A stretch of 32,000 bases of DNA from Abditibacteriales bacterium (GCA_038236075.1 JBBSTH010000003.1:2426-34425); one strand, 5' to 3'; positions 2,876 to 23,551 are shown, counted from the first letter of the stretch. The notes: a model not told the origin generated them from the sequence alone. Made by a program: numbers and translations.

Positions 2876-5800
2876 CTACTTCTGCTCCTTTTGATTTTTA
2901 GCCAGCCATTGCTTGAAAGTTGCGCTATCTGGTGGCACCAAACCATTGGCAGCGAACTGTTGCAAGTCAGAGAGAATAACATCAAAAAATCGCTTGCCAT
3001 GCACTTTGGTCTGCTTGTTTTGGCGGCACAGTGCGATGGCTTTATCGAGTTGATCGTTGAAGAGATAACCATGAACCAGATTAACCGCGATCCAAGATTG
3101 GTCGGGTGCCATGGCAAGACCGCGCGAGGCATCGGAGATCGCTTCTTTGGGACGATGGTAAAGCACTTCGAGATAAGCCATTTGTCCCAGCGCCGAAGCC
3201 GCCTGAGGCTGCACCTGGTCTTTAACTGGCGTGTTTTTTAGCAACTCGAATTGTTCCAAACTTTTCCGGTAAGCGGCGCGTGCGGGCAGCAAGTTCCCCA
3301 AGCTTAACTGAGCGTCGCCGATATTGGCGTAGATTTCCAGTAACTCTTGCTGAACTTGCAGATTGCCCTTGTCTTTTGCCAGGTTTTCCAGCAGCGGCAA
3401 ACTTTTAGCGAAGAGAGGCAATGACGCGGCGATTTTCCCTTGCGAAAGCGCGAGCACACCCAGACGATTCCAGCTTGTGCTGAGGTCGTGTTGCGCTTCG
3501 GCGTTACTCTTATCTTTAGCTAATTCCAGAGCAATGTTCAAACTCTTATGAAAGGTTTTGATGGCGGCATCCGTTTGATTTTGCGCCAGTTGCAATTCGC
3601 CAATGCGGTCGTAAACGGCGGATAAATCGCGGAGCGGTTCGGCTGTGGCGGTGCCATCTTTGTGGGCGCGTTTCACCAGTTCAGTCGCCAGCGGCAACGC
3701 CAAATCGTAGGCTTTTCGCGCTTTATCGTAAACCTTTTGATCGAATTGAACATCGCCACTTTTCATGGCGGTTACCAGTAAGTCGCGCTGAGCCTGTGTA
3801 TTTTCCTTGTCTTGGGCCAACACCGCGCGGATATCCCAGGCTTGTGCGTAGGCTTGTGCGGCACCTTTGTCGTCTTTGAGCAATTGCCGCACATCGCCCA
3901 TCTTTTCTAGGCTAACCGATAAATCGCGTTGAGCCGTCGGAGCGAAATCGCCGCGCGCTAAATCGGTGCGAATCGCCAGGCTTTTGGCGAAAAAGTCCTT
4001 CGCTTTTTGCAATTCGTCGGTGGCCTGATAGCTTTCGCCCATTTTTTCGTAGTTAGTTGCCAAATCGCGCCATGCACCGGGAGTTGGTTTATTCTTGGAC
4101 AGTTCCTCGGTAATAGCCAGGCTTTTTTGGTAGGCCGCGCGCGATTGACTCAGATCGCCCAAGGTCTGCCAAGTATCGCCGATACGTTGCAAGTTGACCG
4201 CTTGTTCGCGGCGCGCAGTGGGCGTTTGGGAATCCATCGCCAAAATCCGATCCAGCAGGGCGATGTTTTCCTCAAAAATCGCTTTGATGATCGGGCGACT
4301 TTCCGGGACATCGGCCAGCTTATCCGGAATTTCGTAAGTCCACTTGCCGATGGCATCCAAGGCCAATTTTTTCTGCACTGCCGTCTTTTGCCATTGAAGA
4401 TAGCTAAAAGTGCCAAAACCCGCGATCATCAGGAAAAACGTCGCCAACACGCTACTGATAATCGTCCACTTCTGGCGTCGAGCGCGTCGCACCCGTTGTC
4501 GTGAAGCCTGAATGTATTCGATGGTGTCCGAATCCAAATCGGTCAGGCGCAGACTGATCATATTTTCGGCTTCGGCCAGGGGCATACCCTCGCGCAGCAG
4601 AAAATCCGGGCGTTTATCTTCGGTCTGCCAGTGAGTGACTTCAGCGGTGATACGCGTGCGCGCGCGCAGAAAATCAATGTCGCCCACCAGCCATTCTTGA
4701 AGGCGTGGCCAGTGTCGTAGCAAGGCTTCGTGCGCCACGCGAATCACCGGCTCTGCCGCCGTGGCCCCTGTGCCCTCCGCTTCGTCTACGACCAACAAAC
4801 GGGCGTCAATGAAGGCTTTAATCAGCGTGCGCCGCGCTTCGTTGGTCACCACGCTATTTATCATTACGCGCCGCGCGGCGATGAGGGAATCGCGCTCGGT
4901 GTCAACCGTGACCAGCGCCCGCAAAACGCCCGGCAACTCTGCTTGCGCCGCCTTGGAAAGCGACTGAAAAACGGCTTCGGCACGCTCGGCCAAAGCGCCT
5001 TCCAATCCGCCCAATTGACGATAAGCCTCGAAGGTCAACACGCCTTTTTCTGTGCGGCTTTTGAAGAGTTCATCGAGAGTGAATTGCAACAGGGGCAACG
5101 CGCCGGGGTTTTTGCCAGCGGCATCGTGTAGCACATCGCTGAGGCGTTCTCCGCTGATGGGATCGACTTCAAAACGCAATCCTGCCGCGCGCGTGGGTTG
5201 AATGAGAATTTGGCCGATTTCGGCAAACGTGGGCGGCACCAAATGATATTGGCCGCTTCCTTCCTTGAGCTTCACCAAATCGGGAATTTCGGCGCAGCGA
5301 GCGTAAAAGTCACTGCGCATCGTCGCTATAATGGAAATCAGACCGCTACATGCCAAAACCGACAATACCGCAACAAAGGTTTGGCGTTCCTCTGCGCCCA
5401 GCCAATCGAGCGTGAAAATTTCCTCAAACTGATCCACCAGCAACGCCAGGCGAGCCGCTGGCACCGAAGCGAGTTGTTCCTGTTCTTGAGTCGCTAACGC
5501 CGCCTTTTCCAACGCTGCGTGCAATGAACTCACGGCGCGTTGCGGAGCTTCGCGGAGCAGAGCGGCCAACTCGGCCGCGTCCATGCCGATTTCTGGCAGG
5601 GCTTTGGGTTCGAGTAACGCCAAGGCCAGACCGTAGAGCAGATCATCGGAAGCATCGCTGGGCTTAAAAATGCTCCAACGCCACAGAGCCACGCCTTCGA
5701 CAACGCCCGGTTGAGTGAGCGTCGGCAAAACACCGGCGCGCACCAGAGACGACTTGCCGCTGCCGCTCATGCCGAAAATCATCAGGAACGAACAACCTTG

Positions 5801-7447
5801 AGCGGCATGGCGCACCAGAGCATCTCGAATCTCGCCAATGGCGCGCGTGCGCCCAAAGAAAATCGGGGCGTGTTCCATATCGAAGGCTTCCAGGCCGCGA
5901 TAGGGCGAGCCTTTGTGCCAGCGAATCGCAAAGGTGCCTTCCTCTGCGTCGGAGCTGAATTTTGGCAGGCGTTCTTTGATGAGCTTGCGCAGGTGACTTT
6001 CCAGCAATCGCTCAAATTCATCGGGCGTGGGAAAATTGTGGAAGGCGGCCTTGAACGTTTCCTGGGCGTTGCCAAACCAGCGATCAATGAAGGTATCGAG
6101 CGCCTTTTTTTGCGCGAGGCGTCCGAGCAGAGCCTCTTCATCACTCATGCTCGCCAACGGCTCGGACGATTTGCGGTAGACCATCAAATCGGGCGTGCCG
6201 CGCTCCTGGAACGAAGCCAACGCGTCCTCGAATTCCCATTCGGTGCCAGAAGAATAGAGCGTTCCATCGGAGCGCCGAAACTGTTCCGGCAAGCGCGTGC
6301 CTAACCGTGACCACAAAATACAAATCACGATGTCGGTGGAAGAAGGCGGAATGATTTGTTCTTGAAAATGGCTGGTCGCGCGCAACGGTTCGTGTTCCCA
6401 TAAAATTGGCACCAATTCCACAAAGGCCGCGAATTCGCCCTGCAAGCGTTCCACCACGCGCGTTGCAATTAAACGTTCCTGTCCCACGTCGCCGGGCGAC
6501 GAAATGAAAATTTGCAGCCTTTTCGGGGACGATTCGGCGGGTGGGGTGGACTCCTCGGCAGAAGGCTGGATTTCGGCGCGCGCTGCTACTTTTTCAATTG
6601 CAACCTCTTGAACTGAAACGCCTGTGTTATCGGATTGGGGAAGAATGTGGGCAGATGTCTCACCATCGGCATCGAGAATCGGCGTTTCCGCTTCCTCTTT
6701 ATCGAACAGTTTTTCAGCTTCGTCATGGAGAGCTTCTTCGTGCGCGATGATTTCGGCGTCTTGCTGAGAAATAACGGTCAAAGAACCAGAAACGCCGTTC
6801 GAGCCGTGAAGAGGAACCGGCAAACTTTCGGTAGGATTAACTTCCTCGTCCACATTCGGCGAAGGCAAAGCAAGCGGCGCTAATGTGACGATTTCTGGAA
6901 TGGCATTGGTATTTGAGGGTAATTCTTCAGCGGATTCTTCCGTGACCTCGCTTTCTTGGCTTGGAGCGGCGGGCAAAGCGGGAAGTTCGAGAGCGGCTTC
7001 AATTTGTGGGAAGGTTTGAGCGGGAGCAAAAATCGCGGCCACCGGGGCGCAGCAAAGGAAAATTTTGTCTTCCAGATCGTTGCGCAGCAGGCGAAATTCG
7101 TAAAAATCTACGGGTTGGGCCAGCGTTTTCTGCAAAAGCTCTTCATATTGTTCCAATGTTTCCGTAAGTCCTTCGATGCGGCTAACAACCGTTGAGGTTT
7201 GCGCGGGTGGGCAGTCCGCGAGACGCCATTCTTCCAGGCCGTTGAGTCCGAAGCGAGTCAAGGTGGCACCGTGACGCGCGAGCAGTTCTTCCAGAACCTG
7301 CCCTAATTTGGCTTGTCCTTGGGCGCGCTCTTGCAATTTCGATTCAGAGAGCCGTGCCACCTCCTCCACGAATGAGATGTAATCATCCCATTCGGTCGCT
7401 TCTGCGGGAAGCGTCTTCAATTCGTCGAGCCAGATATTCCATTTCAT
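2876..7447 (-). CDS. Giant STAND-class P-loop NTPase: N-terminal helical domain, acidic disordered linker, DUF4062/TIR-like Rossmannoid domain, nSTAND-type NTPase, one TM helix and a C-terminal TPR array
   Basis: This is the 1533-aa ORF in the track. The listed start at 7477 is TTG. I prefer the in-frame ATG at 7447 (MKWNIWLD...), which is preceded by GAGGGA 5 nt upstream. The motif IFISSPGDVGQER...DIVICILWSRLGT...SGTEWEFEDAL (track aa 320-437) resembles DUF4062. Walker A is FGMSGSGKSSLVRAGVLP; I verified nt 5750-5773 translate to GMSGSGKS. Walker B is LALLVDQFEEIF. The hydrophobic helix is WTIISSVLATFFLMIAGFGTFSYL (nt 4400-4471). About 400 aa of TPR-like repeats follow (xxLGDxxxxxGxxxxAxxxYxKSLxI). 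Confidence 0.85.
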   Translation of the reverse strand: MKWNIWLDELKTLPAEATEWDDYISFVEEVARLSESKLQERAQGQAKLGQVLEELLARHGATLTRFGLNGLEEWRLADCPPAQTSTVVSRIEGLTETLEQYEELLQKTLAQPVDFYEFRLLRNDLEDKIFLCCAPVAAIFAPAQTFPQIEAALELPALPAAPSQESEVTEESAEELPSNTNAIPEIVTLAPLALPSPNVDEEVNPTESLPVPLHGSNGVSGSLTVISQQDAEIIAHEEALHDEAEKLFDKEEAETPILDADGETSAHILPQSDNTGVSVQEVAIEKVAARAEIQPSAEESTPPAESSPKRLQIFISSPGDVGQERLIATRVVERLQGEFAAFVELVPILWEHEPLRATSHFQEQIIPPSSTDIVICILWSRLGTRLPEQFRRSDGTLYSSGTEWEFEDALASFQERGTPDLMVYRKSSEPLASMSDEEALLGRLAQKKALDTFIDRWFGNAQETFKAAFHNFPTPDEFERLLESHLRKLIKERLPKFSSDAEEGTFAIRWHKGSPYRGLEAFDMEHAPIFFGRTRAIGEIRDALVRHAAQGCSFLMIFGMSGSGKSSLVRAGVLPTLTQPGVVEGVALWRWSIFKPSDASDDLLYGLALALLEPKALPEIGMDAAELAALLREAPQRAVSSLHAALEKAALATQEQEQLASVPAARLALLVDQFEEIFTLDWLGAEERQTFVAVLSVLACSGLISIIATMRSDFYARCAEIPDLVKLKEGSGQYHLVPPTFAEIGQILIQPTRAAGLRFEVDPISGERLSDVLHDAAGKNPGALPLLQFTLDELFKSRTEKGVLTFEAYRQLGGLEGALAERAEAVFQSLSKAAQAELPGVLRALVTVDTERDSLIAARRVMINSVVTNEARRTLIKAFIDARLLVVDEAEGTGATAAEPVIRVAHEALLRHWPRLQEWLVGDIDFLRARTRITAEVTHWQTEDKRPDFLLREGMPLAEAENMISLRLTDLDSDTIEYIQASRQRVRRARRQKWTIISSVLATFFLMIAGFGTFSYLQWQKTAVQKKLALDAIGKWTYEIPDKLADVPESRPIIKAIFEENIALLDRILAMDSQTPTARREQAVNLQRIGDTWQTLGDLSQSRAAYQKSLAITEELSKNKPTPGAWRDLATNYEKMGESYQATDELQKAKDFFAKSLAIRTDLARGDFAPTAQRDLSVSLEKMGDVRQLLKDDKGAAQAYAQAWDIRAVLAQDKENTQAQRDLLVTAMKSGDVQFDQKVYDKARKAYDLALPLATELVKRAHKDGTATAEPLRDLSAVYDRIGELQLAQNQTDAAIKTFHKSLNIALELAKDKSNAEAQHDLSTSWNRLGVLALSQGKIAASLPLFAKSLPLLENLAKDKGNLQVQQELLEIYANIGDAQLSLGNLLPARAAYRKSLEQFELLKNTPVKDQVQPQAASALGQMAYLEVLYHRPKEAISDASRGLAMAPDQSWIAVNLVHGYLFNDQLDKAIALCRQNKQTKVHGKRFFDVILSDLQQFAANGLVPPDSATFKQWLAKNQKEQK

Positions 7448-7694
7448 AAATCCCTCAATTTCCTGTTTTTTGAACAAAAATTAAAAACTGCGATGGCACA
7501 ATTCACTTTTGCGTGCGTTATGTGTTATATTTTCTCTTAAGTGAGTGTTTATCGCAGTATAAATGTATTGGCAGAGAGTATTTTTGTGACAAGAAATCTT
7601 TGATGTCGAGAATTCAATTTTAAACTTGTCAATATCTTGTTTCCCCTGCCAAATATGTTTGCGCTGACTGTTTATTGTTGCCAAAAGGATTTGC
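7448..7694. promoter_or_regulatory. AT-rich divergent promoter region between the STAND gene (-) and the 7695 gene (+)
   Basis: This 247-nt non-coding gap is clearly more AT-rich than its flanks and separates two divergently oriented genes. It contains several TATAAT-like hexamers (TATAAA, TTATAT, AAATAT). No single -35/-10 pair is convincing. Confidence 0.4.
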
Positions 7695-12607: not shown

Positions 12608-14386
12608 TCAATCTGCGGCAGTTTCTTCAACAGAAGCATTGAGACGAAGCACCTGAAAACCGGCACCGGCCAGAAACGCCGGAATCGCGCGCACGACATT
12701 GCGATTCCAGTCGCGCATATTCTCGGGTAATTCATCCCACGTCACCAAATTCGGGTTGGTTCTGCGTTGATTATCGCGCGGCCCGGTTTTCCAGCCCGTT
12801 GCCAACCGTTCTTTCGTCCAGCGAGTGTGTTCCAATTTTGCCATGAGTTCAACTTCGGCGGGCGTAAATTCGTGAGTGCGTGCGTCCCAATCCCACAGCG
12901 GCGCAATGTCGCAGCCGATGGCCGCCAACTTTTCGCCGATGTGCAACGCCTGCGCGCGATTCGATTCGCGCGCTTCTTCAGGCAACTCGTCCCACGGCAC
13001 CAAAAGCCCGTTGGAGCCAGTTTGTGCGGCTTCTTCTTGATCTTCCAGATAGCGTTCGTGGAGCGCGCGCGCCAACAATTCCGGCACTCCGCCCAACACC
13101 AAATCGGGTTGACAGGCACGCTCCATCAATCCCAGCGCGTGTAGCGTTTCAAAGCGCCGACCGGAGCCACGAATTTCGCGCAGCAATGAAGTTAGTCCCG
13201 AGTCCTCCTGCATCGCAGCCACGACGGGCACACCCGTCACGCGTAAACGCCCGTGCAACGCCAGTGCTGCCGCCAAACTCGCCGCGTCATCGGGCAAGCA
13301 GACGTAAACCCGCGAAACGCACGGCTCGCCGTCTTCATCGAACAAAAACTGAGCGCGATGGAACTCTGGATCGCCTGCATCGAGCGAGAGCGTGGACAAC
13401 TCACACGTTGCGCTCAGTTCGGGATGGCGCAGATGCAACAGTTCGGCAATCCGTTCGGCGTTGCGGTCTATGAGCAGACAACGCAATTTCTCGCGCTCTT
13501 GCGGAGGCGATGACTGGGGCGCATCATGCCAGGCGCGCGCGCTGTGGACGAGCAAACTGCGCCCCAGCCGGCCCGCTCCCACGATGAGCAGCTGCGGAGC
13601 GCCTGACGCGGGCAGCGAAAACGCCGGATGTTCGTCGAGCAAGGCGCGCGCGGCAGAGTCCACCAGATTGAAGAATTGTAGGCGAAACGAGCCGCTTGCG
13701 GAGATTTCCCATTCGCGCAAAAGCGCCCACAGGTCGGCGTCCACGATGTGAACGCTGCACACCAACGGATCGCCCGAAGGGCGCCGCGTCGCGCAATCGC
13801 GGGCGCGCGCGGCGATTTCGGCGTTGATGCCATCGTCGCCGCATAAGGCGATCACCGTCTGCGCGCGCGCGATACCCGCGTTTTCCAGAAGAATACGCTC
13901 GCGCGGATCGCCCAACAGCACAATCGCGCCCAACTCGCGCGCGACTGGCACGAAATCGTTGTTTTCGTCGCTTTCCAGGGCCACGACCTGCACGCCGCGC
14001 TCGCAAAAAGCGCGCACCAAAAGCAAGCCGCGTTTGTCCAGTCCACAGACGATGATGTGATGTTTGAAACGGCGCAGACGGAGTTGTTGCCAGCCGTCGC
14101 CCCGCACCAGAAACGAAGCAATGGCCGCGGTTAAAAACGAGAGCGCGCCGATGCCCGCGAACATCAAAAACAGCGCGATCAAGCGCCCGCCCAACGTGCG
14201 CGGAAATACGTCGCCATAACCGATGGTCGTTACCGTCACCATCGCCCACCAGAAGCTGTCCCACAACGAAAGTTGAGGCGAAACCGGCTTCTCGAAGTGA
14301 TAAAATCCCAGCGCGCACGCCACGACCAAAACCATCAACGCGCCCAAAATGGCGGCGACAAGCGAGTTTTTACCCGGTTTGTTCAT
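12608..14386 (-). CDS. 2TM K+ channel fused to an RCK/TrkA-N domain, a second Rossmann-like domain and two C-terminal RyR (ryanodine-receptor repeat) domains
   Basis: ATG at 14386. The selectivity filter is VTVTTIGYGDVFP; I verified nt 14210-14230 translate to TTIGYGD. Hydrophobic helices flank it. The RCK motif is HIIVCGLDKRGLLLVRAF..GVQVVALESD. The second GxGxxG motif is LLIVGAGRLGRSLL. Two RyR-like repeats follow: LARALHERYLEDQ...LVPWDELPEEARESNRAQALHIGEKLAAIG and MAKLEHTRWTKERLATGWKTGPRDNQRRTNPNLVTWDELPENMRDWNRNVVRAIP. Confidence 0.9.
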   Translation of the reverse strand: MNKPGKNSLVAAILGALMVLVVACALGFYHFEKPVSPQLSLWDSFWWAMVTVTTIGYGDVFPRTLGGRLIALFLMFAGIGALSFLTAAIASFLVRGDGWQQLRLRRFKHHIIVCGLDKRGLLLVRAFCERGVQVVALESDENNDFVPVARELGAIVLLGDPRERILLENAGIARAQTVIALCGDDGINAEIAARARDCATRRPSGDPLVCSVHIVDADLWALLREWEISASGSFRLQFFNLVDSAARALLDEHPAFSLPASGAPQLLIVGAGRLGRSLLVHSARAWHDAPQSSPPQEREKLRCLLIDRNAERIAELLHLRHPELSATCELSTLSLDAGDPEFHRAQFLFDEDGEPCVSRVYVCLPDDAASLAAALALHGRLRVTGVPVVAAMQEDSGLTSLLREIRGSGRRFETLHALGLMERACQPDLVLGGVPELLARALHERYLEDQEEAAQTGSNGLLVPWDELPEEARESNRAQALHIGEKLAAIGCDIAPLWDWDARTHEFTPAEVELMAKLEHTRWTKERLATGWKTGPRDNQRRTNPNLVTWDELPENMRDWNRNVVRAIPAFLAGAGFQVLRLNASVEETAAD

Positions 14387-14638: not shown

Positions 14639-15526
14639 CTACTCGTCCAGCATTTTTATCGCTTGTTTCAGACTCCGTTGCATCCGGTTGAACGAGCTGG
14701 AAAGCATGGCGATTTCATCTTTGCCGTTGACTGGTAAATCTTCGACTTCCAAATTGCCTTTGGAAATTTCGTCCGCTGAGCGCGCCAATTGTTTGACCGG
14801 TGCCACAACAACACTGCGCAACATCAGGTTTAAAATCAGCAGCGTTAACAGCAAAATTCCCGCGAGTGCGCCCATCATAAGGCCCGTGATTTTGCGCGCG
14901 ATTTGTTCGGGAATGCCGACAGGCACCGAAACGATTTGCGCTCCGATGACCGAGTGCAATTTCCAGTTGAAACCGTTTTTCGAGCCGTAATCGTGAATCA
15001 TGGAAGCGGGCGCGACATTGGGTGTGCTATGGCAACTCAAGCACGACTGTTGCGTGACGCGGAGCGGGCGCGACATATAAAAGTAACGGCCTTTCGGCGT
15101 ATCGCGCAAACCGACGACCTCTTTGAGATTACCGTTTTTCTGGAAACTCTTGATGATGCTGGCTTCCCAGTCCACCGCCAAATCTTTGGTGTTGGTTGGG
15201 TTGAGCGTGGCCTCACGATAAAAATAATCGGGATAACGCTCCTGCATATAAGAAAAAACTTTTTGTGACGAAAACGCGGGAACGGTTTCGGGCACGAACT
15301 TGCCGTTGCGTTGCGACGGCAAAATCGGTTTGATTTGGTTCGAGGTATATTTGCGAACGGCGAGCGCATTTTCCATCATCAGGCGCGCATTGCCGGTCAC
15401 GATCTGACGCGCTTGTTGTTGCAACAAGGCATTGAAAACCGTCCCCGCGCCTACAATGCTCACCGCGAATACCACGAAGAAAACCAGATTGAACTTGGAC
15501 GCCAGGCGCCAGGAAGAAAAATTCAT
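14639..15526 (-). CDS. Membrane-anchored DUF3365 (Tll0287-like c-type heme) sensor domain plus HAMP domain, with no output domain
   Basis: The track start at 15565 is GTG. I prefer the in-frame ATG at 15526 (MNFSSWRLASKFNLVFFVVFAVSIVGAG, a signal anchor). The heme-c motif CLSCH is verified at nt 15029-15043. A second TM helix is ITGLMMGALAGILLLTLLILNLML. The HAMP motif is VVAPVKQLARSADEISKGNLEVEDLPVNGKDEIAMLSSSFNRMQRSL. The protein ends 8 aa after HAMP. Confidence 0.8.
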   Translation of the reverse strand: MNFSSWRLASKFNLVFFVVFAVSIVGAGTVFNALLQQQARQIVTGNARLMMENALAVRKYTSNQIKPILPSQRNGKFVPETVPAFSSQKVFSYMQERYPDYFYREATLNPTNTKDLAVDWEASIIKSFQKNGNLKEVVGLRDTPKGRYFYMSRPLRVTQQSCLSCHSTPNVAPASMIHDYGSKNGFNWKLHSVIGAQIVSVPVGIPEQIARKITGLMMGALAGILLLTLLILNLMLRSVVVAPVKQLARSADEISKGNLEVEDLPVNGKDEIAMLSSSFNRMQRSLKQAIKMLDE

Positions 15527-15624
15527 AGGAAAGAGAAAGAAGATGAGGTCACTATCGAATGGCACGCAGTTGTAAATCGAAAAGAAGCAGCGAAAGCTCG
15601 CTCGAAAGGTTTGACATTGGGCGA

Positions 15625-16557
15625 TTAAACGCGTTCTTCCTTCAAGAATACCTCGCGTTCCTCTGGCGTGGGCAGATTTTTGGCGAGCAAAATGTAAAGT
15701 TCGTTCACGTCTCTGGCTTTTTTGGATGCGCGTTTCACCAGCAAACGGGAGAGCGGCCCCATGTGAACCGCAAATTGGCGTTCGATTTTTTGCAAGACGA
15801 CTTCATCCCACACTTTTTCGCCAGTGGGCGTGGCTGATGGTGTCGCAGGGAGCGCCGTTGGCACGCCGAATAAAAGTGTCGTTGTTTCCAGAAAACGGGC
15901 GCGTTCGTCTTCTTTGGTGATGGAATGGCTCACCATTTGGCAAAGCGCGGCGCCATTGAACGTTTTCAGCGCACTCTGATGCACGATGACGCGGGCCATT
16001 GGGCCAATATAAAACGCCAGTTCGCGTTCGATGCGGCGCAAGGTATCGGGATTCCACCCTTCGCTTTCCTTTTTCCCCTCCGCATCGAGCGACTCAACGG
16101 GTTCAATTCCCCCTTCTTCGAGGAGCAACACGCTCTCTGTTTGTTCAGGTTCGGTGCATTGCAGCAGAGCGTGAATAGTTTTGGCGAGCCGTTCCAAATG
16201 CGCTTCGAGCGGCGGACTGAGCGCATCCAACCAGTGCGGCGTGCCGATGAAGTAACGCATATGCTTGGAGAGCGCCACGTCTTCTAAACGAAACGGCACG
16301 ATGGACAAACCTTCGGAGACTGCGTTTTGCACTTCGCGCTTGACCTGCTCGGAGATATTGGACGACGACGACAACAACAGCACGAACACGCGCGCAGAAG
16401 TGATTCCGTCAATAATGGCGTCACTCCAATCCTGGCCGGGCGTCACGTCGCGTGGCGCGATCCAGCAGCGAACACCGCGCGCTTCGAGCGTGCCGCACAC
16501 CGCGTCTGCCGTCAGTTTGTCCTGGTGAGCGTAGGAAATAAATACATCGAGCGACAT
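15625..16557 (-). CDS. TIR-domain protein with two tandem ~60-aa C-terminal helical repeats
   Basis: ATG at 16557. The N-terminus is a textbook bacterial TIR (TIR_2-like): DVFISYAHQDKLTADAVCGTLEARGVRCWIAPRDVTPGQDW..AIIDGITSARVFVLLLSSSSNISEQVKREVQNAV..GLSIVPFRL. The C-terminal repeats are WNPDTLRRIERELAFYIGPMARVIV...DERARFLE and WDEVVLQKIERQFAVHMGPLSRLLV...EEREVFLK. Confidence 0.9.
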   Translation of the reverse strand: MSLDVFISYAHQDKLTADAVCGTLEARGVRCWIAPRDVTPGQDWSDAIIDGITSARVFVLLLSSSSNISEQVKREVQNAVSEGLSIVPFRLEDVALSKHMRYFIGTPHWLDALSPPLEAHLERLAKTIHALLQCTEPEQTESVLLLEEGGIEPVESLDAEGKKESEGWNPDTLRRIERELAFYIGPMARVIVHQSALKTFNGAALCQMVSHSITKEDERARFLETTTLLFGVPTALPATPSATPTGEKVWDEVVLQKIERQFAVHMGPLSRLLVKRASKKARDVNELYILLAKNLPTPEEREVFLKEERV

Positions 16558-16599: not shown

Positions 16600-16881
16600 T
16601 TATTTGGCGATGCGAAACCCCATTGCCAACATGGTTTTGATGACCTGTTGCGCCACAACGCGATCATAATCTTTCTCGCTTTCGGAAAGCTCTTCGTAAG
16701 GCACAAGTCCCGGATGCTCTTTACGTTGATCGTCTCGATGCGGCCCATAGAGCCAACCGTCATCCAGACGTTGTTTTGCCCACACCTCGTGGGTATTAAT
16801 GGCGATTTCCTCCAGCAAAGCGGCGATTGATTCATCCAATTCGATATGGGAAGTATCAATCGGAGTAGGAATGTAACGCAT
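16600..16881 (-). CDS. Stand-alone RyR-domain protein (about 93-100 aa)
   Basis: The sequence ...LLEEIAINTHEVWAKQRLDDGWLYGPHRDDQRKEHPGLVPYEELSESEKDYDRVVAQQVIKTMLAMGF matches the RyR-repeat consensus (HE.W...R...GW.yG......k.hP.lvpY.eL.e.eK..dR). The start is ambiguous: ATG at 16881 (used here) or in-frame GTG at 16902 (track). Confidence 0.8.
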   Translation of the reverse strand: MRYIPTPIDTSHIELDESIAALLEEIAINTHEVWAKQRLDDGWLYGPHRDDQRKEHPGLVPYEELSESEKDYDRVVAQQVIKTMLAMGFRIAK

Positions 16882-16916
16882 GAAATTAGGCGCTTTTGGC
16901 ACAGCAATCCCTCTAA

Positions 16917-17000: not shown

Positions 17001-17774
17001 TTAGTCATTCATGGATTGGCAACGCACTAACGCATTTTGCATCGCTTCGGGGTGAACGGCCAAATCGCCGGTAAAGGCGTAGTTGAGCGCGCTGATGAGA
17101 AAAAGCACCAGAGCAATTATGATGGCGAGCAAACTCGTCATGGCGGCTTGAGTCTGAAATCGCTCTATGCCAAAGAAGAACGTGAAGGCGATGGTTGCCA
17201 TGCCGCCCAGAATCAACACGACCCACATCGGGCCGGGCACTCCACTGCGACTCGCCAGCAAGCGCAAGCGCCGGTTGTCGCCGACGTCGGTGAGACGGTC
17301 GAGAATTTGAGCCATCAGCACCGATTCAGTGGGAGTCAAACGCGATTTTTGAGTGCAACTGGCCCACAGCGCATCCAATGCGATCGAGGTGCCGTCATCT
17401 GACTGGCCCTGTGTCATCAGCGGCCATTCATTTTGCACCACGCGACGCGCGTATTGCGCTGACTTGGCACGCAATTCCTCTTTAAAGGGCGCTTGAAATC
17501 CCGTTGATAACCGGCAAACATCAACAATGGCGTTGGCCTCGCGCGCGGCGACGATTTCGGCAGCACCGTATCGTTCCCACACCACGAGCACCACAAAAGC
17601 CAACACCACCGCATAAATAACACCCACAATCGCCAGAATAAAACCTGCGACATCGTGATGTTGGCGCAAAGCGAGCGGCGAAGTGCGTGCGCGCACCAGC
17701 GCCAGACCGCCCACAGAAAACAACAGCGCGACGACCGTAATCGTCACGCATAGTAGCCATAAAGGTAATACCAA
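17001..17774 (-). CDS. DUF4239 / bestrophin-like membrane protein
   Basis: The protein has an N-terminal TM helix and a second TM helix followed by ...VVWERYGAAEIVAAREANAIVDVCRL..., where EANAI is the hallmark I associate with DUF4239. Two C-terminal TM helices follow. The start codon at 17774 is TTG, and no in-frame ATG lies near the N-terminus. Confidence 0.6.
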   Translation of the reverse strand: MVLPLWLLCVTITVVALLFSVGGLALVRARTSPLALRQHHDVAGFILAIVGVIYAVVLAFVVLVVWERYGAAEIVAAREANAIVDVCRLSTGFQAPFKEELRAKSAQYARRVVQNEWPLMTQGQSDDGTSIALDALWASCTQKSRLTPTESVLMAQILDRLTDVGDNRRLRLLASRSGVPGPMWVVLILGGMATIAFTFFFGIERFQTQAAMTSLLAIIIALVLFLISALNYAFTGDLAVHPEAMQNALVRCQSMND

Positions 17775-17861: not shown

Positions 17862-19742
17862 TTAAACCGGCTTGATGCGAACTTTGACTTTCAAATCGTT
17901 GGAGATGTGCTCCATTTTCAAGCCTCCGGCGCGGCGGCGTTCCAGCATTTGCTGTTGCGACATCGCGTTCGATGACGGCAGATTTACCGTCAACGCTTTA
18001 GCATCGAAGTCGCCATACGGTTCGCCGTTAATCGTGACCGATTCGATTTCGATGCTGCCCGGCGGCAACAAATCGGGCGCAACGCGCAAGATGTTGTCGG
18101 GAAAAGCGCCGATTTTGGGCTTGAAGTGAAAGTCCATCGCGGTCTTGGTGATCAGCAAGTTGGTATAGACCGCCGCCAGGTAGCACAGTTCAATCGAGTG
18201 GTAAGCGCCCATCGAGTGGCTTCCTTTTTGCCGTTCGTTGCCCAGCAAATACGGCAGACCGTTCGCCAGCACGTTGAAGTAAACCGCGCCCGAATCGGTA
18301 TCGAGGAACCACGCGTTATAAAACGCCGCCGATTCCTGCGCCAGCTTGCGATATTTGTCTTCGCCCATGCAGCCGGACAAAATCAAATACGCCAGAATGC
18401 CCTGTTCCTGCTGCCACCACGCTTTGCGGTCGTGGAATGCCAGCCGGTGAAAGATTTCGCCATCGGCCACGTGACGTTCCAAAACGTCATACCAACCGCC
18501 GCGCTGCTTGTCCATAGCCACGTCGGGCATGGCGTTGGCCAGTTTGGTGGCGAGCGCGGTATAGGAATCTTTGGCGCGCAGCGAGTTCATGCGCATCAAA
18601 TTCCACGCGATTTTCAAGTCGTGACCGCCCACAGCCCGATCCTGCTGCCAGCCCCAGGTTTTGTCGGCGCTCCAATCGTCGAAGAATTTCTCCTGCACGA
18701 ACGGCGAACCGTCTTTGGCCGGAAATCGCTGTTCAATGGTATCGAAGGTATATTCCAGAAACTTCGCGTATTCTTCGCGGCCCGTCGCCAGATACAAGTT
18801 AATGAGGTAGGCGGGCGCGTGGTCGCCGACCGAGTTCCAGTTTTTGCGCGCCTGATTGTGGCCCAACGATTCGGCTTTGGGATCGAAAGTATCGGTCGTG
18901 AGATGCGAGTAGTAACCGCCCGCTTCGCTGGTGTCGAGATAGTATTTATCGAAGAGCGCAATGGTTTTCTCGGTATCGCTGAGAATGGACGGATCGCCGG
19001 TGATACGGTAGGTTTGCACCGGCCCAGCGAGCGCGTAGATTTGTTCGTAAGCCGGAAGCGCGTTCCAGTCGTCGCCAAAGAGCGAGCCGAGATGTTCTTT
19101 CACGCCGTCGGGCGTCACTTCGAGCGCGTGCAGCCAGTAAACGACGCCTTCTTTGTCGCGCTTGGCGATTTTTTCCTGCAAATACTTGGTGCCCTTTTCG
19201 GCGGCTTCCAGAAAACGATCTTCGCCGGTCAACAGGTAAGCCGAAGCGAAACCATAAACCGTGCGCGAAATGGTATCGGTTTCCTGAATGCCCGAAGGCA
19301 GCTTGTCGCCATTGAGATACAGGTTGGTGCGGTATTTGGAGTAGTCCATTGGGCCGCCTTCAAACTGCGCCTTAATGTAAAAATCGGCGACCTGACGCGC
19401 CTGCTCGACCCACCAATCCGGCTTTTCAAACTCGAATTTGCCCGCGCTTTTGCCAGGGAAAACCAGGTGTTGCGCTTCAAATTTGTAGTCGCCGTCTTCG
19501 GGGTAAAACACGCCATAGGCGAACATATAGTTGCCGGGCACGAACAACTCTTGGAGTTGATCCATCGCGTTCTGATACGATTCGCCCAGATTGCGCGTGA
19601 ACTCGGCAAAAGTCGCGGAGGTCGTTTTGCCGGAGACTTCGGTGCCACCGGGCGTTTTGATGGTGAAGGTGCCTTTTTCGGCATCGGCTTGTGTGAGGTA
19701 TCCGGCAACAGTGTCGGAAAATATCCAGTTGATTTGGTTCAT
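17862..19742 (-). CDS. N-acylglucosamine 2-epimerase (AGE) superfamily (alpha/alpha)6-barrel protein with extra N- and C-terminal domains
   Basis: 626-aa ORF with ATG at 19742. The central region shows AGE-like helical repeats: TISRTVYGFASAYLLTGEDRFLEAAEKGTKYL, YEQIYALAGPVQTYRITGD, GDHAPAYLINLYLATGREEY, GGHDLKIAWNLMRM and WWQQEQGILAYLIL. Confidence 0.75.
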   Translation of the reverse strand: MNQINWIFSDTVAGYLTQADAEKGTFTIKTPGGTEVSGKTTSATFAEFTRNLGESYQNAMDQLQELFVPGNYMFAYGVFYPEDGDYKFEAQHLVFPGKSAGKFEFEKPDWWVEQARQVADFYIKAQFEGGPMDYSKYRTNLYLNGDKLPSGIQETDTISRTVYGFASAYLLTGEDRFLEAAEKGTKYLQEKIAKRDKEGVVYWLHALEVTPDGVKEHLGSLFGDDWNALPAYEQIYALAGPVQTYRITGDPSILSDTEKTIALFDKYYLDTSEAGGYYSHLTTDTFDPKAESLGHNQARKNWNSVGDHAPAYLINLYLATGREEYAKFLEYTFDTIEQRFPAKDGSPFVQEKFFDDWSADKTWGWQQDRAVGGHDLKIAWNLMRMNSLRAKDSYTALATKLANAMPDVAMDKQRGGWYDVLERHVADGEIFHRLAFHDRKAWWQQEQGILAYLILSGCMGEDKYRKLAQESAAFYNAWFLDTDSGAVYFNVLANGLPYLLGNERQKGSHSMGAYHSIELCYLAAVYTNLLITKTAMDFHFKPKIGAFPDNILRVAPDLLPPGSIEIESVTINGEPYGDFDAKALTVNLPSSNAMSQQQMLERRRAGGLKMEHISNDLKVKVRIKPV

Positions 19743-19769
19743 GGTGTTGATTGTGGGATTGTGGGATTA

Positions 19770-22052
19770 TCAAACGTCGGCGCGTTCAGCATTATCGGGA
19801 GTTTTGCCGATGGCTTCAACTAATTCGCGTGCGCTACCTTCCGGATCGGCAGTCGCTTCTTCGCTGGCTTCCTCGCCTGAACGCAGGTCTTTGGAAACTA
19901 AAACGACAATACTACGCGGGCCAACAATGTAATTTGAACCGTGTATGGGCACTTCGCAATCGTGCAAACAAATATCCTCGAGACGGCCCAGTGAGGTATC
20001 AATGCTACGGTGCCAGTTGCGTTCGGGCACGCGCGGTAATTCGAAGGTGAGAGCGTCCCAGTGCATATTCATCATCACATGAATGTCGGGATCGGTGCCA
20101 AAGCCACCCATCGTGAAAGCCAAAGCGTGCGCTTCGCCGTCGTCCCAGCCCGGCGCATTGAGTTGGCAACCATGCCACGAGATGTCGGCCAATCCCCGCT
20201 CGTTGAGTTGGCCGTTGAAGTAGATCGCGCGCCGTAAAATCGGGTGATTTTTGCGGAATTGAATGATACGCGAGAAAAAATTGAATGTCTCAGCGTTCTT
20301 TTCAACCAAATCCCAATCGAACCACGAAATTTCGTCGTTGTGACAGTAAGCGTTGTTGTTGCCGTTCTGCGTGCGACGCACTTCGTCGCCGCCGCAAATC
20401 ATCGGCACGCCTTGCGAAAGCATCAAAATCGTGGCGAAGTTTTTGATTTGTCGTTGCCGCAAACGTTCGATTTCTGGATCGTCTGTTGGGCCTTCGACGC
20501 CACAGTTCCAACTCAAATTGTCGTCGTTGCCGTCGCGGTTGTCTTCGCCATTAGCCCAGTTATGTTTTTCATTGTAAGAAACCATGTCGTTGAGCGTGAA
20601 GCCGTCGTGACAGGTAATGAAATTAACCGAGTTGACCGGCAGTTCACAATCGTATCGGAACAGGGCGGCGCTGCCGCTCATCACATCAGCCACGCGGCCA
20701 ATCAGTCCGCCGTCGCCTCGGACGAAACGGCGAATCGCGTCACGATAATAACCGTTCCATTCGCCCCAGCGATAGCCGGGGAAATGGCCCAACTGGTTGT
20801 CGCCCGCCGCGTCCCAACATTCGGCGATCACTTTGGAATCGGCCAGAACTTCCGATAACTCGATTTGCCAGATGACCGGCGGTTTGGGCATTGGCGCGCC
20901 GTTTTCGTCGCGCGTCAGAATCACGGCTTCGTCAAAGCGAAAGCCGTCAACGTGCATCTCGCTCACCCAGAATTCGAGCGAATCCACAACGAACTTTTCG
21001 CCGATGGGATGGTTGGCATTGAAAGTGTTGCCACATCCCGTGTAGTTCATATAAAATTCTCGGTTCTCTGGCGATAACATATAGTAAGTGCTATTGCCGA
21101 AACCTTTGAAGTTAATCGTCGGCCCTGCTTCGTTGCCTTCGGAAGTATGGTTATAAACCACATCCAAAATAACTTCGATGTCCGCTTTGTGGAAAGCCTT
21201 CACCATGTCGCGGAACTCATTGATATGTTGCCCCATTTGCGGCGACATACAATAACTCGAATGCGGTGCGAAAAACCCGACGGTGCTATAACCCCAATAA
21301 TTGCACAATTGGGTGCCATCTTCCATTTCGCGCAAGCCTTCTTTGGTGTCAAAGTCGAAAACTGGCAGGAGTTCAACGGCAGTAACGCCCAACTCTTTAA
21401 GGTAGGGAATTTTGTCGATGAGACCAGTAAACGTGCCCGCTTTGGCCGTTTCTACACCCGAAGTCGGCGATTTCGTGAAACCGGCGACGTGCATTTCGTA
21501 AATCACCGTCTCTTCCATCGGGCGATTAATGGGTTTATCGCCTTCCCAATCGTAATTTTCGCTATCAACCACGACCGAACGCATCGAATTGGTCAGATTA
21601 TCGTTCCAGTCGCAGCCTTTGCCACGATCCCATAACTCGTCGGTGTTGCCTTTGGCATAGGGATCAGTCAGCACTTTATTGCGGTTATAACGGTCGCCGC
21701 GCCCTTGAATATCGTTCGGCCCATCCACGCGAAATGCGTAGTGAGCGCCTGGCTTGAGACCCTTCACGTAAACGTGCCAGAAGTGGAAGGATTTGTTTTC
21801 GATGATGTCGAAGTGAATGATCTGCGTCGGTTCGGGATCATCGTGGGCATCGAACAACAACAGTTCTATTCCGGAGGCCGCATCGGAAAACACTGAAAAA
21901 TTTACGCCATTGGCATCGGGCGTCGCACCCAGAGGATGCGAACGACCGGGTTCGGTTTCATAGTGCGTTGCTTTGGGCAACCCACGATGCGACGGTGCAG
22001 AAGCAGAGGGAGCGGAAGAGATTTGCTCTTCGGGAGCAGCAGTTTGTGGCAT
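19770..22052 (-). CDS. glgX: Glycogen debranching enzyme (GH13 isoamylase/GlgX type)
   Basis: The GH13 conserved regions are present: VILDVVYNH, VDGFRFDEA, IAECWDA and FITCHDGFTLND. An N-terminal E-set/CBM48-like segment is GVNFSVFSDAASGIELLLFD. I place the start at the ATG at 22052 (MPQTAAPEE). The longer track ORF to 22181 would overlap the upstream VOC gene. Confidence 0.9.
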   Translation of the reverse strand: MPQTAAPEEQISSAPSASAPSHRGLPKATHYETEPGRSHPLGATPDANGVNFSVFSDAASGIELLLFDAHDDPEPTQIIHFDIIENKSFHFWHVYVKGLKPGAHYAFRVDGPNDIQGRGDRYNRNKVLTDPYAKGNTDELWDRGKGCDWNDNLTNSMRSVVVDSENYDWEGDKPINRPMEETVIYEMHVAGFTKSPTSGVETAKAGTFTGLIDKIPYLKELGVTAVELLPVFDFDTKEGLREMEDGTQLCNYWGYSTVGFFAPHSSYCMSPQMGQHINEFRDMVKAFHKADIEVILDVVYNHTSEGNEAGPTINFKGFGNSTYYMLSPENREFYMNYTGCGNTFNANHPIGEKFVVDSLEFWVSEMHVDGFRFDEAVILTRDENGAPMPKPPVIWQIELSEVLADSKVIAECWDAAGDNQLGHFPGYRWGEWNGYYRDAIRRFVRGDGGLIGRVADVMSGSAALFRYDCELPVNSVNFITCHDGFTLNDMVSYNEKHNWANGEDNRDGNDDNLSWNCGVEGPTDDPEIERLRQRQIKNFATILMLSQGVPMICGGDEVRRTQNGNNNAYCHNDEISWFDWDLVEKNAETFNFFSRIIQFRKNHPILRRAIYFNGQLNERGLADISWHGCQLNAPGWDDGEAHALAFTMGGFGTDPDIHVMMNMHWDALTFELPRVPERNWHRSIDTSLGRLEDICLHDCEVPIHGSNYIVGPRSIVVLVSKDLRSGEEASEEATADPEGSARELVEAIGKTPDNAERADV

Positions 22053-22087
22053 GATCGTTGGTGGAAAACTAGCGAGCAAAAGAAATG

Positions 22088-22510
22088 TTAATTGAGTGGC
22101 GGCGGCGCGTCTTGGTCGGTGAAACCCTGCGAAATTTCCACGATGTTCCCATCGGGATCGCGAACCCAGACCGTGCGCCAACCAGGAATAAAAGCATCGA
22201 AATCGAGCGGGCCAAGCGTAACATCTGCGGCATCGCCCATCTCGCCAAGCGTTGCGTCCACATTTTCCACTTGAAAAGCGATGTGGCGCACGCCCGCCGT
22301 ATGCGGCCCGTCGGCCTCGAAATTTTGTAGAGCGTCGCCCTCAGCGGCGAACAGTTCCAGGTAAACCGCGCCCGCTTTAAGAAATACGATTTGCGTCTCG
22401 CCCAACGGAATGACGCGCGCGCGCTGGAAACCAAAATAGCGCGCGTAAAAACGTTCGGTGGCCAGAGGATCGCGGCACGAAAGCGCAATGTGAGAAAAAG
22501 TAGTGGTCAT
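22088..22510 (-). CDS. VOC (glyoxalase/bleomycin-resistance/dioxygenase) family protein
   Basis: The sequence FSHIALSCRDPLATERFYARYFGF...YLELF...GVRHIAFQVENVDA...VWVRDPDGNIVEI is the typical paired beta-alpha-beta-beta-beta pattern. ATG at 22510 (MTTTFSHIAL). The track start at 22522 is TTG. Confidence 0.8.
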   Translation of the reverse strand: MTTTFSHIALSCRDPLATERFYARYFGFQRARVIPLGETQIVFLKAGAVYLELFAAEGDALQNFEADGPHTAGVRHIAFQVENVDATLGEMGDAADVTLGPLDFDAFIPGWRTVWVRDPDGNIVEISQGFTDQDAPPPLN

Positions 22511-22518
22511 AATACAAA

Positions 22519-23139
22519 TCAACCATCCTGAGAGCGACCATCGAAAGGTAGGTCTGCTTCGGCTCTGGCTTTGGCATTGATCATTTCGATGATCTGACGC
22601 GCCAAGAGATGACAGTGGCCGCCAGTGCGTGCCGTGACCAAATCGCCGTCTACGACAACATCTTGATCGATATAAATGATGCCCATGTTGCGAGCGTCGC
22701 CATGCAAGTTGTTATGAACAACGGCTTTGCGTCCGCGCACCACTTCGGGAATTGGCGCCATCAGCCACATCCCATGACAGATGATGCCTTTGATCACATC
22801 TTCATTCTCGAAAGCCTGCTGCAAGAACGCGGTTGCAGGCGGTAATTTGGAGATATCTTCGGTGTAGCGCAAGCGGTCGGCAACCATTCCGGCGGGCACA
22901 ATGATAGCGTCATAAGACGCCAATTCATTATCGCTCATACCTTCGAGACTTTTCTCCTCGAAGTTGCCGGAAATGTGGTATTCGTGACCTTTGAAATCGA
23001 TCACCGATTGGCCCCACAAACGAGTGAGAAAGACAACATCAATGCTTTCTTCGGCAAAGCGGTGTTGGTAATACCAGATTTCTGGTTCGTAAAAGTCGCT
23101 TTCAATCAAGATGCCGACTTTTTTAGTTTTGGGTGTCAT
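22519..23139 (-). CDS. DJ-1/PfpI family protein
   Basis: ATG at 23139 is preceded by AAGGAG. The motifs KVGILIESDF, YDAIIVPAG, the nucleophile elbow GIICHGMWLM and VVVDGDLVTAR are present. Confidence 0.85.
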   Translation of the reverse strand: MTPKTKKVGILIESDFYEPEIWYYQHRFAEESIDVVFLTRLWGQSVIDFKGHEYHISGNFEEKSLEGMSDNELASYDAIIVPAGMVADRLRYTEDISKLPPATAFLQQAFENEDVIKGIICHGMWLMAPIPEVVRGRKAVVHNNLHGDARNMGIIYIDQDVVVDGDLVTARTGGHCHLLARQIIEMINAKARAEADLPFDGRSQDG

Positions 23140-23151
23140 GAATTCTCCTTT

Positions 23152-23544: not shown

Positions 23545-23551
23545 GGTATTT

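Follow-up and report, generated by a model that had tools for sequence, protein, structure and literature searches.

A bacterial K+ channel with tandem RCK domains and a ryanodine receptor-like tail is encoded beside a TIR gene and may respond to a TIR-made nucleotide

The DNA considered here is a window of 32,000 nucleotides from an Abditibacteriales bacterium (GCA_038236075.1 JBBSTH010000003.1:2426-34425), in which the gene of a K+ channel ending in ryanodine receptor (RyR) repeats lies among the genes of a putative TIR signalling module (Table 1). The initial annotation of the channel, made from the sequence alone, had described a KcsA/MthK-like pore of two transmembrane helices (2TM) with a TTIGYGD filter and an RCK domain, and this is borne out by the open reading frame (ORF), by Pfam and by a structural model. 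The matches to Ion_trans_2 (68.9 bits against a cut-off of 22.5), TrkA_N and RyR all exceed the Pfam gathering scores, and the filter residues T53, T54, G56, Y57, G58 and D59 do not vary in an alignment of 23 relatives. The AlphaFold2 (AF2) model of the whole channel, built from 23 homologues with a mean predicted local distance difference test (pLDDT) of 86.2 and a predicted template modelling score (pTM) of 0.75, places transmembrane (TM) helices at residues 6-32 and 65-94 and a pore helix at 41-53 between them. Among solved structures, its best Foldseek matches are those of GsuK (4GX0, 4GX1, 4GX2 and 4GX5; E 4e-13 to 3e-11), followed by MthK, TrkA (4J9V), Slo and RyR3 R12, and NCBIfam returned for this protein only far-below-threshold similarities to Kch, TrkA and Kef.

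The second Rossmann-like domain of the initial annotation (LLIVGAGRLGRS, aa 266-277) also stands: Pfam finds no significant match in this region (TrkA_N E 0.09), but the AF2 model gives it a confident Rossmann-type fold with a beta-alpha-beta arrangement, and its GAGRLG motif is conserved. Since the best matches of the model are to the tandem-RCK channel GsuK and then to MthK, TrkA and Slo, the domain is, as modelled, a second RCK domain. TrkA_C lobes (PF02080), which are present in more distant K+ channel matches, gave no Pfam match in the window protein. Its RCK1 nucleotide loop (aa 115-120; 14027-14044, minus strand) reads GLDKRG, with Asp in place of the second Gly, whereas 22 of 22 aligned relatives have GLGxxG, a substitution that might weaken nucleotide binding at RCK1 in the window protein alone.

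Table 1. Features of the channel gene and of its surroundings in the window
Feature	Position	Strand	Evidence or remark
K+ channel, 592 aa: tandem RCK and R12-like RyR tail	12608-14386	-	ORF, Pfam, AF2 model, Foldseek
2TM pore domain Ion_trans_2, aa 18-94	14105-14335	-	Pfam E 3.5e-19; KcsA/MthK sequence matches; modelled helices
Selectivity filter TTIGYGD, aa 53-59	14210-14230	-	Translation; invariance among relatives
RCK1, TrkA_N Rossmann domain, aa 111-197	13796-14056	-	Pfam E 3.6e-15; motif counts
RCK2, second Rossmann-type domain with GAGRLG, aa ~264-424	13115-13597	-	AF2 beta-alpha-beta; GsuK/TrkA matches
RyR repeat 1, degenerate, aa ~436-505	12872-13081	-	Pfam E 0.0025 (sub-threshold); alignment to repeat 2
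RyR repeat 2, canonical, aa ~508-581	12644-12865	-	Pfam E 2.3e-14; PDB RyR matches
Partner: SLOG-fold N-domain and 4-helix membrane protein, 669 aa	10554-12563	-	Directly downstream of channel
Tll0287-like (CXXCH haem) periplasmic sensor with HAMP	14639-15565	-	Pfam E 1.9e-41 (Tll0287-like), 3e-14 (HAMP)
TIR_2 + DUF8082 protein, 310 aa, predicted signal generator	15625-16557	-	Pfam TIR_2 E 5e-22
Stand-alone small RyR-domain protein, 100 aa	16600-16902	-	Pfam RyR E 9.5e-34, full length
Bestrophin-like protein (anion-channel family)	17001-17774	-	Directly upstream of small RyR gene
Metabolic block	17862-25084		Beside the module
nSTAND1 NTPase, 1533 aa, C-terminal TPR	2876-7477	-	E 1.5e-96
EF-hand protein, 401 aa, Ca2+-binding motifs at aa ~48-111	1356-2561	+	Near STAND NTPase

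The part that sets this channel apart is its C-terminal tail, for which two RyR repeats had been proposed at aa ~435-580 (nt 12647-13084, coordinates that are arithmetically correct for aa 435-580). Repeat 2 (PF02026, aa 512-579) is canonical, scoring 53.8 bits against a Pfam cut-off of 27.4 and matching in phmmer the repeats of RyR1, RyR2 and RyR3 (E 2e-16 to 1e-9) as well as the bacterial structure 3NRT (6e-7). Repeat 1 proves to be a degenerate half-repeat: alone it reaches 18.4 bits against the same cut-off, phmmer matched it to no PDB sequence, and a deletion of ~8 residues removes its 'GW..G' loop. It can be aligned to repeat 2 at 33% identity (E 3e-8), and in Foldseek the tail matches human RyR3 Repeat12 (9LS7/9L9B, ~205 residues) over 182-192 aligned columns (E 3e-7 to 8e-7), as well as the Bacteroides/human chimera Bt-hRyR_12 (6UHI). 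The comparison with the eukaryotic Repeat12, which matched RyR3 R12 at E 3e-7, thus upholds the RyR fold, and because the match spans the complete RyR3 Repeat12 and repeat 1 aligns with repeat 2, the modelled tail is a genuine tandem of the R12 type whose first half is degenerate; a spurious repeat 1 is ruled out on the same grounds.

The combination is not a one-off. Proteins with the Ion_trans_2 + TrkA_N + RyR architecture form ~50 clusters at 90% identity, with relatives 41-78% identical to the window protein in sources named as Abditibacteriota (78%), Capsulimonadales and Vicinamibacterales; an identical protein is already present in protein records, and the relatives bear no annotation beyond 'voltage-gated potassium channel Kch', 'NAD-binding protein' or 'RyR domain-containing protein'. 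When 1.84 billion cluster representatives were searched with a profile, 3,933 matched at E <= 1e-30, and the best 150 of these (50%-identity representatives) all have E < 1e-145 and span RCK1 through the RyR tail. About one eighth of those best 150 also match the canonical pore; the remaining ~7/8 keep TM1, a pore-helix-like segment ('WDxxYxxxQLF') and TM2, and carry a 'VLESG'- or 'AMQSG'-type sequence in place of TTIGYGD (for instance loci L091-L170, among them L101, L107, L140 and L159, and proteins P0038, P0043 and P0059). The retention of these three segments led us to reject the idea that such seemingly 'pore-less' TrkA_N-RyR relatives are soluble, and by their sequences they are probably divergent P-loop channels. 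The RCK-RCK-RyR family is, then, large and uncharacterised. RyR domains occur in other bacterial fusions too, namely BTAD + Trans_reg_C + TrkA_N + RyR, DUF1003 + RyR and RelA_SpoT + RyR + PF18171 (proteins P0079, P0088 and P0095), and these architectures suggest that the RyR domain is a portable sensor placed on several kinds of output.

What would such a domain sense? The initial annotation stated that no function had been established for bacterial RyR repeats, which is outdated. According to a 2026 preprint, phage RyR-domain proteins bind or hydrolyse the TIR signals 2'/3'cADPR, isomers of cyclic ADP-ribose (cADPR): RyDEP and six of eight tested viral RyR-domain homologues bind them, some at nanomolar level (PMC13232231). 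RyDEP consists of a single RyR domain, forms a homodimer and contacts its ligand through H75, W78, H100 and D117, of which H75 and D117 are the catalytic dyad (PMC13232231). On the animal side, a 2026 paper describes RY12 of RyR1 as an ADP sensor that selectively binds two ADP, the ligands being stacked on W882 and W996 in a basic cleft that includes R1000, with the clamp closing on binding (PMC13642953).

The residues of the channel tail were placed against these two precedents (RyDEP was retrieved as MN234187 gp78 and its residue numbering confirmed) and their conservation was counted in 23 sequences of the clade with the K+ filter. In repeat 1, H443 (equivalent to RyDEP H75) and R477 are present in 23/23, Y446 (RyDEP W78, RyR1 W882) in 22/23 with one F, and N459 (RyDEP H100) and N476 (RyDEP D117 in the ungapped register) in 22/23 each. 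In repeat 2, H520 (RyDEP H75) and W523 (RyDEP W78, RyR1 W996) are again found in 23/23, R527 (RyR1 R1000) and N561 (RyDEP D117, ungapped register) in 22/23, W532 (RyR1 W1005) and N544 (RyDEP H100) in 21/23, and R562 in 20/23. This pattern, including the stacking Y and W, extends over 94 loci, with the exception that in repeat 2 of the non-canonical-filter clade Asp is mostly retained where RyDEP has D117, in 37 of the 50 sequences scored. On this conservation the pocket of the tail is under strong selection. Both channel repeats have the H75-equivalent His; for D117, the Pfam profile coordinates imply the ungapped register and hence N in both repeats, and MAFFT inserts a 2-residue gap that brings E/D to this position. 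The pocket thus suggests a binder rather than a hydrolase, and because of this ambiguity of register it is a suggestion only.

The channel is better seen as one part of a multi-gene TIR module than as a stand-alone element; the module genes all lie on the minus strand with short gaps between them. Upstream of the channel, the TIR protein carries a DUF8082 domain that is also found on its orthologues, and it gave weak ThsB/TIR matches in PADLOC. The stand-alone small RyR protein keeps H38, W41, H63 and D80, the counterparts of RyDEP H75, W78, H100 and D117, in either register; judged by these residues it is a candidate host-encoded hydrolase or buffer of cADPR isomers, and relatives of it are present in 108 phage records. 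Between the TIR and channel genes lies the Tll0287-HAMP protein, with the haem motif CLSCH and no output domain, whose gene occupies the same position in L002, L004, L005, L010 and L175 and through which a redox or gas signal may enter the module.

Downstream, the partner protein showed a sub-threshold Pfam match to DUF4231 (22 bits against 24.7) and a weak match to the YAcAr SLOG family, and a few of its 856 homologues carry PF18181, PF18184 or PF14015 (SLATT). In its AF2 model (pLDDT 81.9) a helical region with four TM segments follows the N-domain. The top Foldseek matches of this N-domain all belong to the SLOG superfamily (YpsA 2NX2 with TMt 0.65, DprA, ShosA and LOG), at borderline E-values of 1.5e-3 and above, and SLOG is the type of sensor found in Thoeris ThsA; the TM part had no PDB match in Foldseek. 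Rfam gave no matches over the whole window, so that no riboswitch is seen in the gap of 252 bp that precedes the channel gene, and promoter and terminator scans of the window returned counts equal to the shuffled expectation, for which reason the operon structure rests only on the shared strand and the short gaps.

The linkage was followed in eleven contig look-ups with channel homologues at 43-78% identity and in 80 further loci found in metagenomes with the cytoplasmic region specific to the family, the loci being scored by searching six-frame translations with custom-built hidden Markov models (HMMs). The partner gene adjoins the channel gene downstream in 13 of 16 loci of the K+-filter clade, often overlapping it by 4 bp, and a TIR gene lies at most two genes away in 11 of 13 well-sampled loci of this clade, which come from Abditibacteriota-like, Vicinamibacterales and other lineages. 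The arrangement and the fusion partner of the TIR change from locus to locus: a TIR-DUF8082 gene upstream of the channel (L002, L004, L005, L010 and L175), a convergent TIR-kinase gene downstream (L008, L009 and L177), a TIR-WD40 (L176) and a TIR-TM protein missed by Pfam (L178). In many cases a small RyR gene stands directly upstream (L002, L005, L007, L176 and L178). In the scored set, 23 of the 51 family loci that span 8 kb or more have a TIR gene, compared with 0 of 67 controls, for which we used generic K+ channel loci (L011-L090) from another collection, obtained by a full-length-alignment scan keyed on the selectivity filter. After collapsing at >=80% identity, a TIR gene is present in 24 of 45 family loci of this length, compared with 0 of 67 (Fisher p = 2e-12), divided into 10/14 for the K+-filter clade and 14/31 for the other clade, and in these 24 loci the distance to the TIR is always <=5 kb and mostly <=2 kb. 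Small RyR genes that stand alone and have the RyDEP residues accompany 15 of the 89 family loci and none of the 80 controls. The earlier hint at NAD+, cADPR isomers and the small RyR protein is therefore strongly backed by a conserved and significant TIR linkage.

The linked TIR domains themselves belong to a single tight subfamily, scoring 170-190 bits against a common HMM, and the Glu column of the 'REVxxA' motif, which from knowledge of the motif we take to be the TIR catalytic glutamate, is at least 80% conserved in 27 of them, that of the window included. Their C-terminal parts are highly variable, comprising TPR, PQQ propeller, Peripla_BP_6, SBP_bac_5, zinc ribbon, TSP_3, kinase, WD40 and DUF8082. 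Many have a single strong TM helix directly after the TIR domain, and in L099, L107, L120, L125, L127, L133, L159 and L167 an N-terminal TIR is followed by one strong TM helix at residues ~170-270 and then by periplasmic-type domains (PQQ propeller, SBP_bac_5, Peripla_BP_6, TSP_3 or TPR). These TIR-TM proteins are predicted to be single-pass receptors with a cytoplasmic TIR, a topology that recalls Toll-like receptors.

On comparative grounds, and with moderate confidence, we favour a K+ channel gated through its RyR tail by an ADP-ribose-derived nucleotide that the TIR protein makes; a signal of this type is probable because the channel sits beside a TIR gene across several phyla. The domain anatomy, the fold, the conservation of the pocket and the gene linkage were computed here. 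In characterised relatives, TIR domains turn NAD+ into cADPR-type signals, RyR domains take up such signals and adenine nucleotides between aromatics on their first helices, and RCK rings gate K+ pores; by analogy we infer that the tail binds the TIR product and that binding gates the pore. The proposal in the initial annotation of a RyR repeat acting as a ligand-sensing module on the channel thus gains support from the R12 fold, the near-invariant pocket and the TIR linkage, with ligand binding and gating themselves remaining at the level of inference. The sequence of events would be as follows. The TIR protein, encoded two genes upstream and belonging to a type of generator with a variable sensor domain, would make a cADPR isomer or a relative of it from NAD+. 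The tail of a tetrameric 2TM K+ channel, whose GsuK-like tandem-RCK ring is extended by the R12-like tandem, would be the receptor of this nucleotide, taking it into the cleft between the repeats, where it would stack on Y446 and W523 and be held by H443, H520, R527, W532, N544 and R562. Binding would close the clamp as ADP does in RyR1 RY12, and the conserved linker 'ACQPDLVLGG' could relay the movement to RCK2 and the gating ring, altering the opening of the pore. The small RyR protein with the RyDEP dyad would hydrolyse or buffer the signal, and the SLOG + 4TM (SLATT-like) partner may be a second signal-responsive membrane effector.

Several points weigh against this proposal. The channel pocket differs from that of RyDEP in having N at the H100 position of both repeats and, in the ungapped register, N at D117, and repeat 1 lacks the GW loop; such differences could mean an altered affinity or specificity, or that the ligand is a plain adenine nucleotide, and the ambiguous D117 register adds to them. 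The RCK domains already offer nucleotide sites, so that the tail need not be the primary gate, and the window protein has the atypical RCK1 motif. As regards the linkage, no TIR is seen nearby, in the sequence at hand, for about half of the family loci that reach 8 kb, and three or four K+-filter loci lack the TIR and the partner alike. Both the separate origin of the control loci and the building of the TIR HMM from family-locus TIRs also count here, yet the latter detected divergent TIRs at 70-100 bits. Finally, PADLOC found no system-level match among ten window proteins, with nothing for the channel, the partner or the small RyR protein and only weak TIR-domain matches for the TIR protein.

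A different question is what the module is for. It may be a physiological second-messenger pathway rather than an anti-phage one, tuning K+ flux or membrane potential on redox, nutrient or osmotic cues; we regard this as possible, if tentative, and as it concerns the biological role it is compatible with the gating mechanism favoured above. The many linked TIRs predicted to be single-pass membrane proteins with Peripla_BP_6, SBP_bac_5, PQQ propeller or TSP_3 domains point in this direction, as do the haem-sensor/HAMP gene between TIR and channel in the lineage of the window, the one metabolic block that flanks the module in several phyla, unlike what is seen in a mobile defence island, the lack of a PADLOC system, and the failure of 'SLOG and 4TM' candidates to protect E. 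coli from phages (10.64898/2025.12.03.692087). Against it, the characterised bacterial TIR signalling systems are all defensive (10.64898/2025.12.03.692087), the window and related loci contain genes of conflict type (nSTAND1 NTPase in the window; caspase-like C14, TIR-TPR and CHAT in the related loci), and the phage RyR anti-defence proteins related to the small RyR gene imply that signals recognised by RyR domains are used in immunity. This precedent and the neighbouring conflict-type genes suggest, by analogy, a defensive, abortive-infection role.

Does the tail read a TIR product at all? It could sense ordinary ADP/ATP and couple K+ flux to the energy state of the cell, the TIRs acting through other targets (e.g., SLOG-4TM) or through the consumption of NAD+. 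The binding of two ADP by RyR1 RY12 (PMC13642953) is in line with this, the channel repeats resemble repeat 2 of RyR3 in having N/N where RyDEP has H100 and D117, NAD/ADP regulate channels of the GsuK type, and close to half of the family loci are without a TIR nearby. We nonetheless consider it unlikely, as a RyR fold unconnected with TIR products would leave the strong and specific TIR adjacency (p ~2e-12) hard to explain, and likewise the presence of small RyR genes whose residues are RyDEP-like, and sites for adenine nucleotides are already supplied by the two RCK domains. Quite improbable is that the tail is not a gate but a docking site, for example for the small RyR protein or the SLOG + 4TM partner, or else a built-in sponge or hydrolase. 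Single RyR domains do homodimerise, as in RyDEP (PMC13232231), small RyR genes are co-encoded, and the Asp at the D117 position in repeat 2 of the non-canonical-filter members (37/50) could make some of them catalytic. However, the modelled tandem is an intramolecular pseudo-dimer matching the full R12, which would leave no free dimer interface, the K+ clade has N at the position of the catalytic acid in both repeats, and fusion to a gating ring, kept over thousands of sequences, is what one usually sees in an allosteric sensor. A last alternative makes the TIR adjacency incidental and the protein a Kch/GsuK-type K+ channel with a housekeeping function, whose C-terminal extension serves a structural role, as the annotation of relatives as just 'voltage-gated potassium channel Kch' or 'NAD-binding protein' might suggest; this is very hard to credit given the near-invariant pocket residues and the recurrence across phyla of the linkage to TIR, small RyR and partner genes, with gene orders and TIR fusions varying.

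The proposed TIR-gated channel can be compared with several known systems. GsuK, the closest structural match to the whole channel model, likewise joins a 2TM K+ pore and two RCK domains in one chain, and its crystal structures carry NAD or ADP, in keeping with PDB titles that describe RCK rings of the GsuK type as gating K+ pores and binding NAD/ADP; it has no RyR/R12 domain, its identity to the window channel is only 15-19%, and the window protein differs from it in lacking Pfam-detected TrkA_C lobes. The gating-ring principle is also that of MthK, TrkA and Slo (BK), with significant matches in sequence and structure, but the ligands of these are Ca2+, ATP/ADP or Na+ and none has a RyR-type module. 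With the animal R12/RY12/P1 domain, the tail shares the tandem fold (~185 columns for RyR3 R12; E 1e-12 to 1e-16 for repeat 2), the aromatic pair at the cleft (Y446/W523 for W882/W996 of RyR1) and the basic residue at W+4 (R527 for R1000), and in both cases the domain would lie on the cytoplasmic side of a tetrameric cation channel, the tetramer being predicted for the window protein and the domain being a nucleotide sensor in RyR1. The animal host is, however, a 6TM Ca2+ release channel unrelated to the 2TM K+ channel with its RCK ring, repeat 1 of the window protein is shortened and has Y for W, and there is no evidence for common descent of the channel-plus-repeat combination. RyDEP, for its part, is a PF02026 member whose H75 and W78 equivalents are kept in the channel and whose ligands are TIR products, the window gene being TIR-linked; it differs in being a single-domain, homodimeric, soluble enzyme or sponge with an anti-defence function, whereas the window tail is a tandem pseudo-dimer fused to a channel, and its closer analogue in the window is the stand-alone small RyR protein (16600-16902).

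The resemblance to Thoeris is one of logic, since a TIR gene adjoins genes of membrane proteins with predicted nucleotide-sensor domains. Thoeris types V-XI were defined in a December 2025 preprint that makes no mention of RyR, TrkA or PF02026; in it, type VII is TIR + SLATT, validated and using canonical cADPR, and type X is TIR + an 'ion channel', ThsK, with a signal that is not known (10.64898/2025.12.03.692087). The window partner, being SLOG + 4TM and SLATT-like, recalls type VII and the 'SLOG and 4TM' candidates, but the TIR of '4TM SLOG' has no BLASTP similarity to that of the window, and the window module comprises 4-6 genes as opposed to two. Type X TIRs are ThsB_TIR proteins (PF08937) of ~165 aa, a different signature from TIR_2 + DUF8082. 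Beside a TIR gene whose product shares 89% identity with the type X ThsB of B. cereus Q1 lies a gene for a multi-TM protein of 246 aa. In this presumed ThsK, identified from adjacency only, no Pfam match, K+ filter, RCK or RyR was found, and the window channel is therefore unlikely to be a ThsK homologue. A search for the type X effector in a plasmid collection found only type II loci (TIR + Macro). Because PADLOC calls no system, the TIR belongs to a different subfamily and the presumed ThsK is unrelated, the module, by its sequences, matches no named Thoeris type. In the literature on bacterial RyR-domain K+ channels, of which coverage was incomplete, neither this architecture nor a cellular TIR-RyR link was found, and 'RyR domain' together with 'TIR domain' retrieved only the RyDEP paper and one unrelated paper.

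If the tail does gate on a TIR product, this would be the first TIR-nucleotide receptor role proposed for a cellular PF02026 domain, whose functions so far are only those of phage counter-defence proteins and animal RyRs. Signalling of the TIR/Thoeris type would gain a new sensor, the cellular R12 tandem, and a new class of effector, a K+ channel with an RCK ring, and the system would parallel the proposed link between cADPR and the ryanodine receptor in animals. It would also offer a small bacterial model, rich in soluble domains, of how an R12 clamp couples nucleotide binding to gating, a question that bears on the dantrolene/ADP site of RyR1 and on whether cADPR-type molecules bind RyR repeats. 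The RCK-RCK-RyR family would in this manner link TIR immune signalling, phage counter-defence and the nucleotide and dantrolene regulation of ryanodine receptors, and the linked single-pass TIRs with periplasmic sensors hint that bacterial TIR signalling may serve beyond phage defence. A bolder and rather unlikely extension is a bacterial axis, not only immune, that runs from TIR through a cADPR-type messenger and a RyR domain to an ion channel, with the animal R12 descended from a prokaryotic cADPR-sensing module. The messenger would come from single-pass TIR receptors with extracytoplasmic domains, or from TIR-kinase or TIR-DUF8082 proteins fed by a haem sensor; it would be read by a large family of P-loop channels with a K+ or 'VLESG'-type filter, whose RCK ring bears an R12-like clamp, and the small RyR hydrolase would reset the signal. 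Such an axis would bear on the long debate over whether cADPR acts on RyRs themselves.

Some further features of the surroundings deserve to be recorded. The metabolic block beside the module recurs in several phyla (L002, L004, L005, L007, L008, L009 and L177) and contains a GMC oxidoreductase, SnoaL_2, DJ-1/PfpI, a glyoxalase, an isoamylase (CBM48 + alpha-amylase) and a GlcNAc-2-epimerase-like protein, the last with an added STAS domain in the Acidobacteria versions; it is an unusual flank for a mobile defence island. The nSTAND1 protein, which has an N-terminal region of ~525 aa with a weak PADLOC match to PDC-S60 at aa 321-502, is a STAND of conflict-system type near the module. The bestrophin-like gene is kept at the same place in L002, L004 and L005 and lies within 6 kb in L010, and its product is possibly an anion channel co-regulated with the K+ channel.

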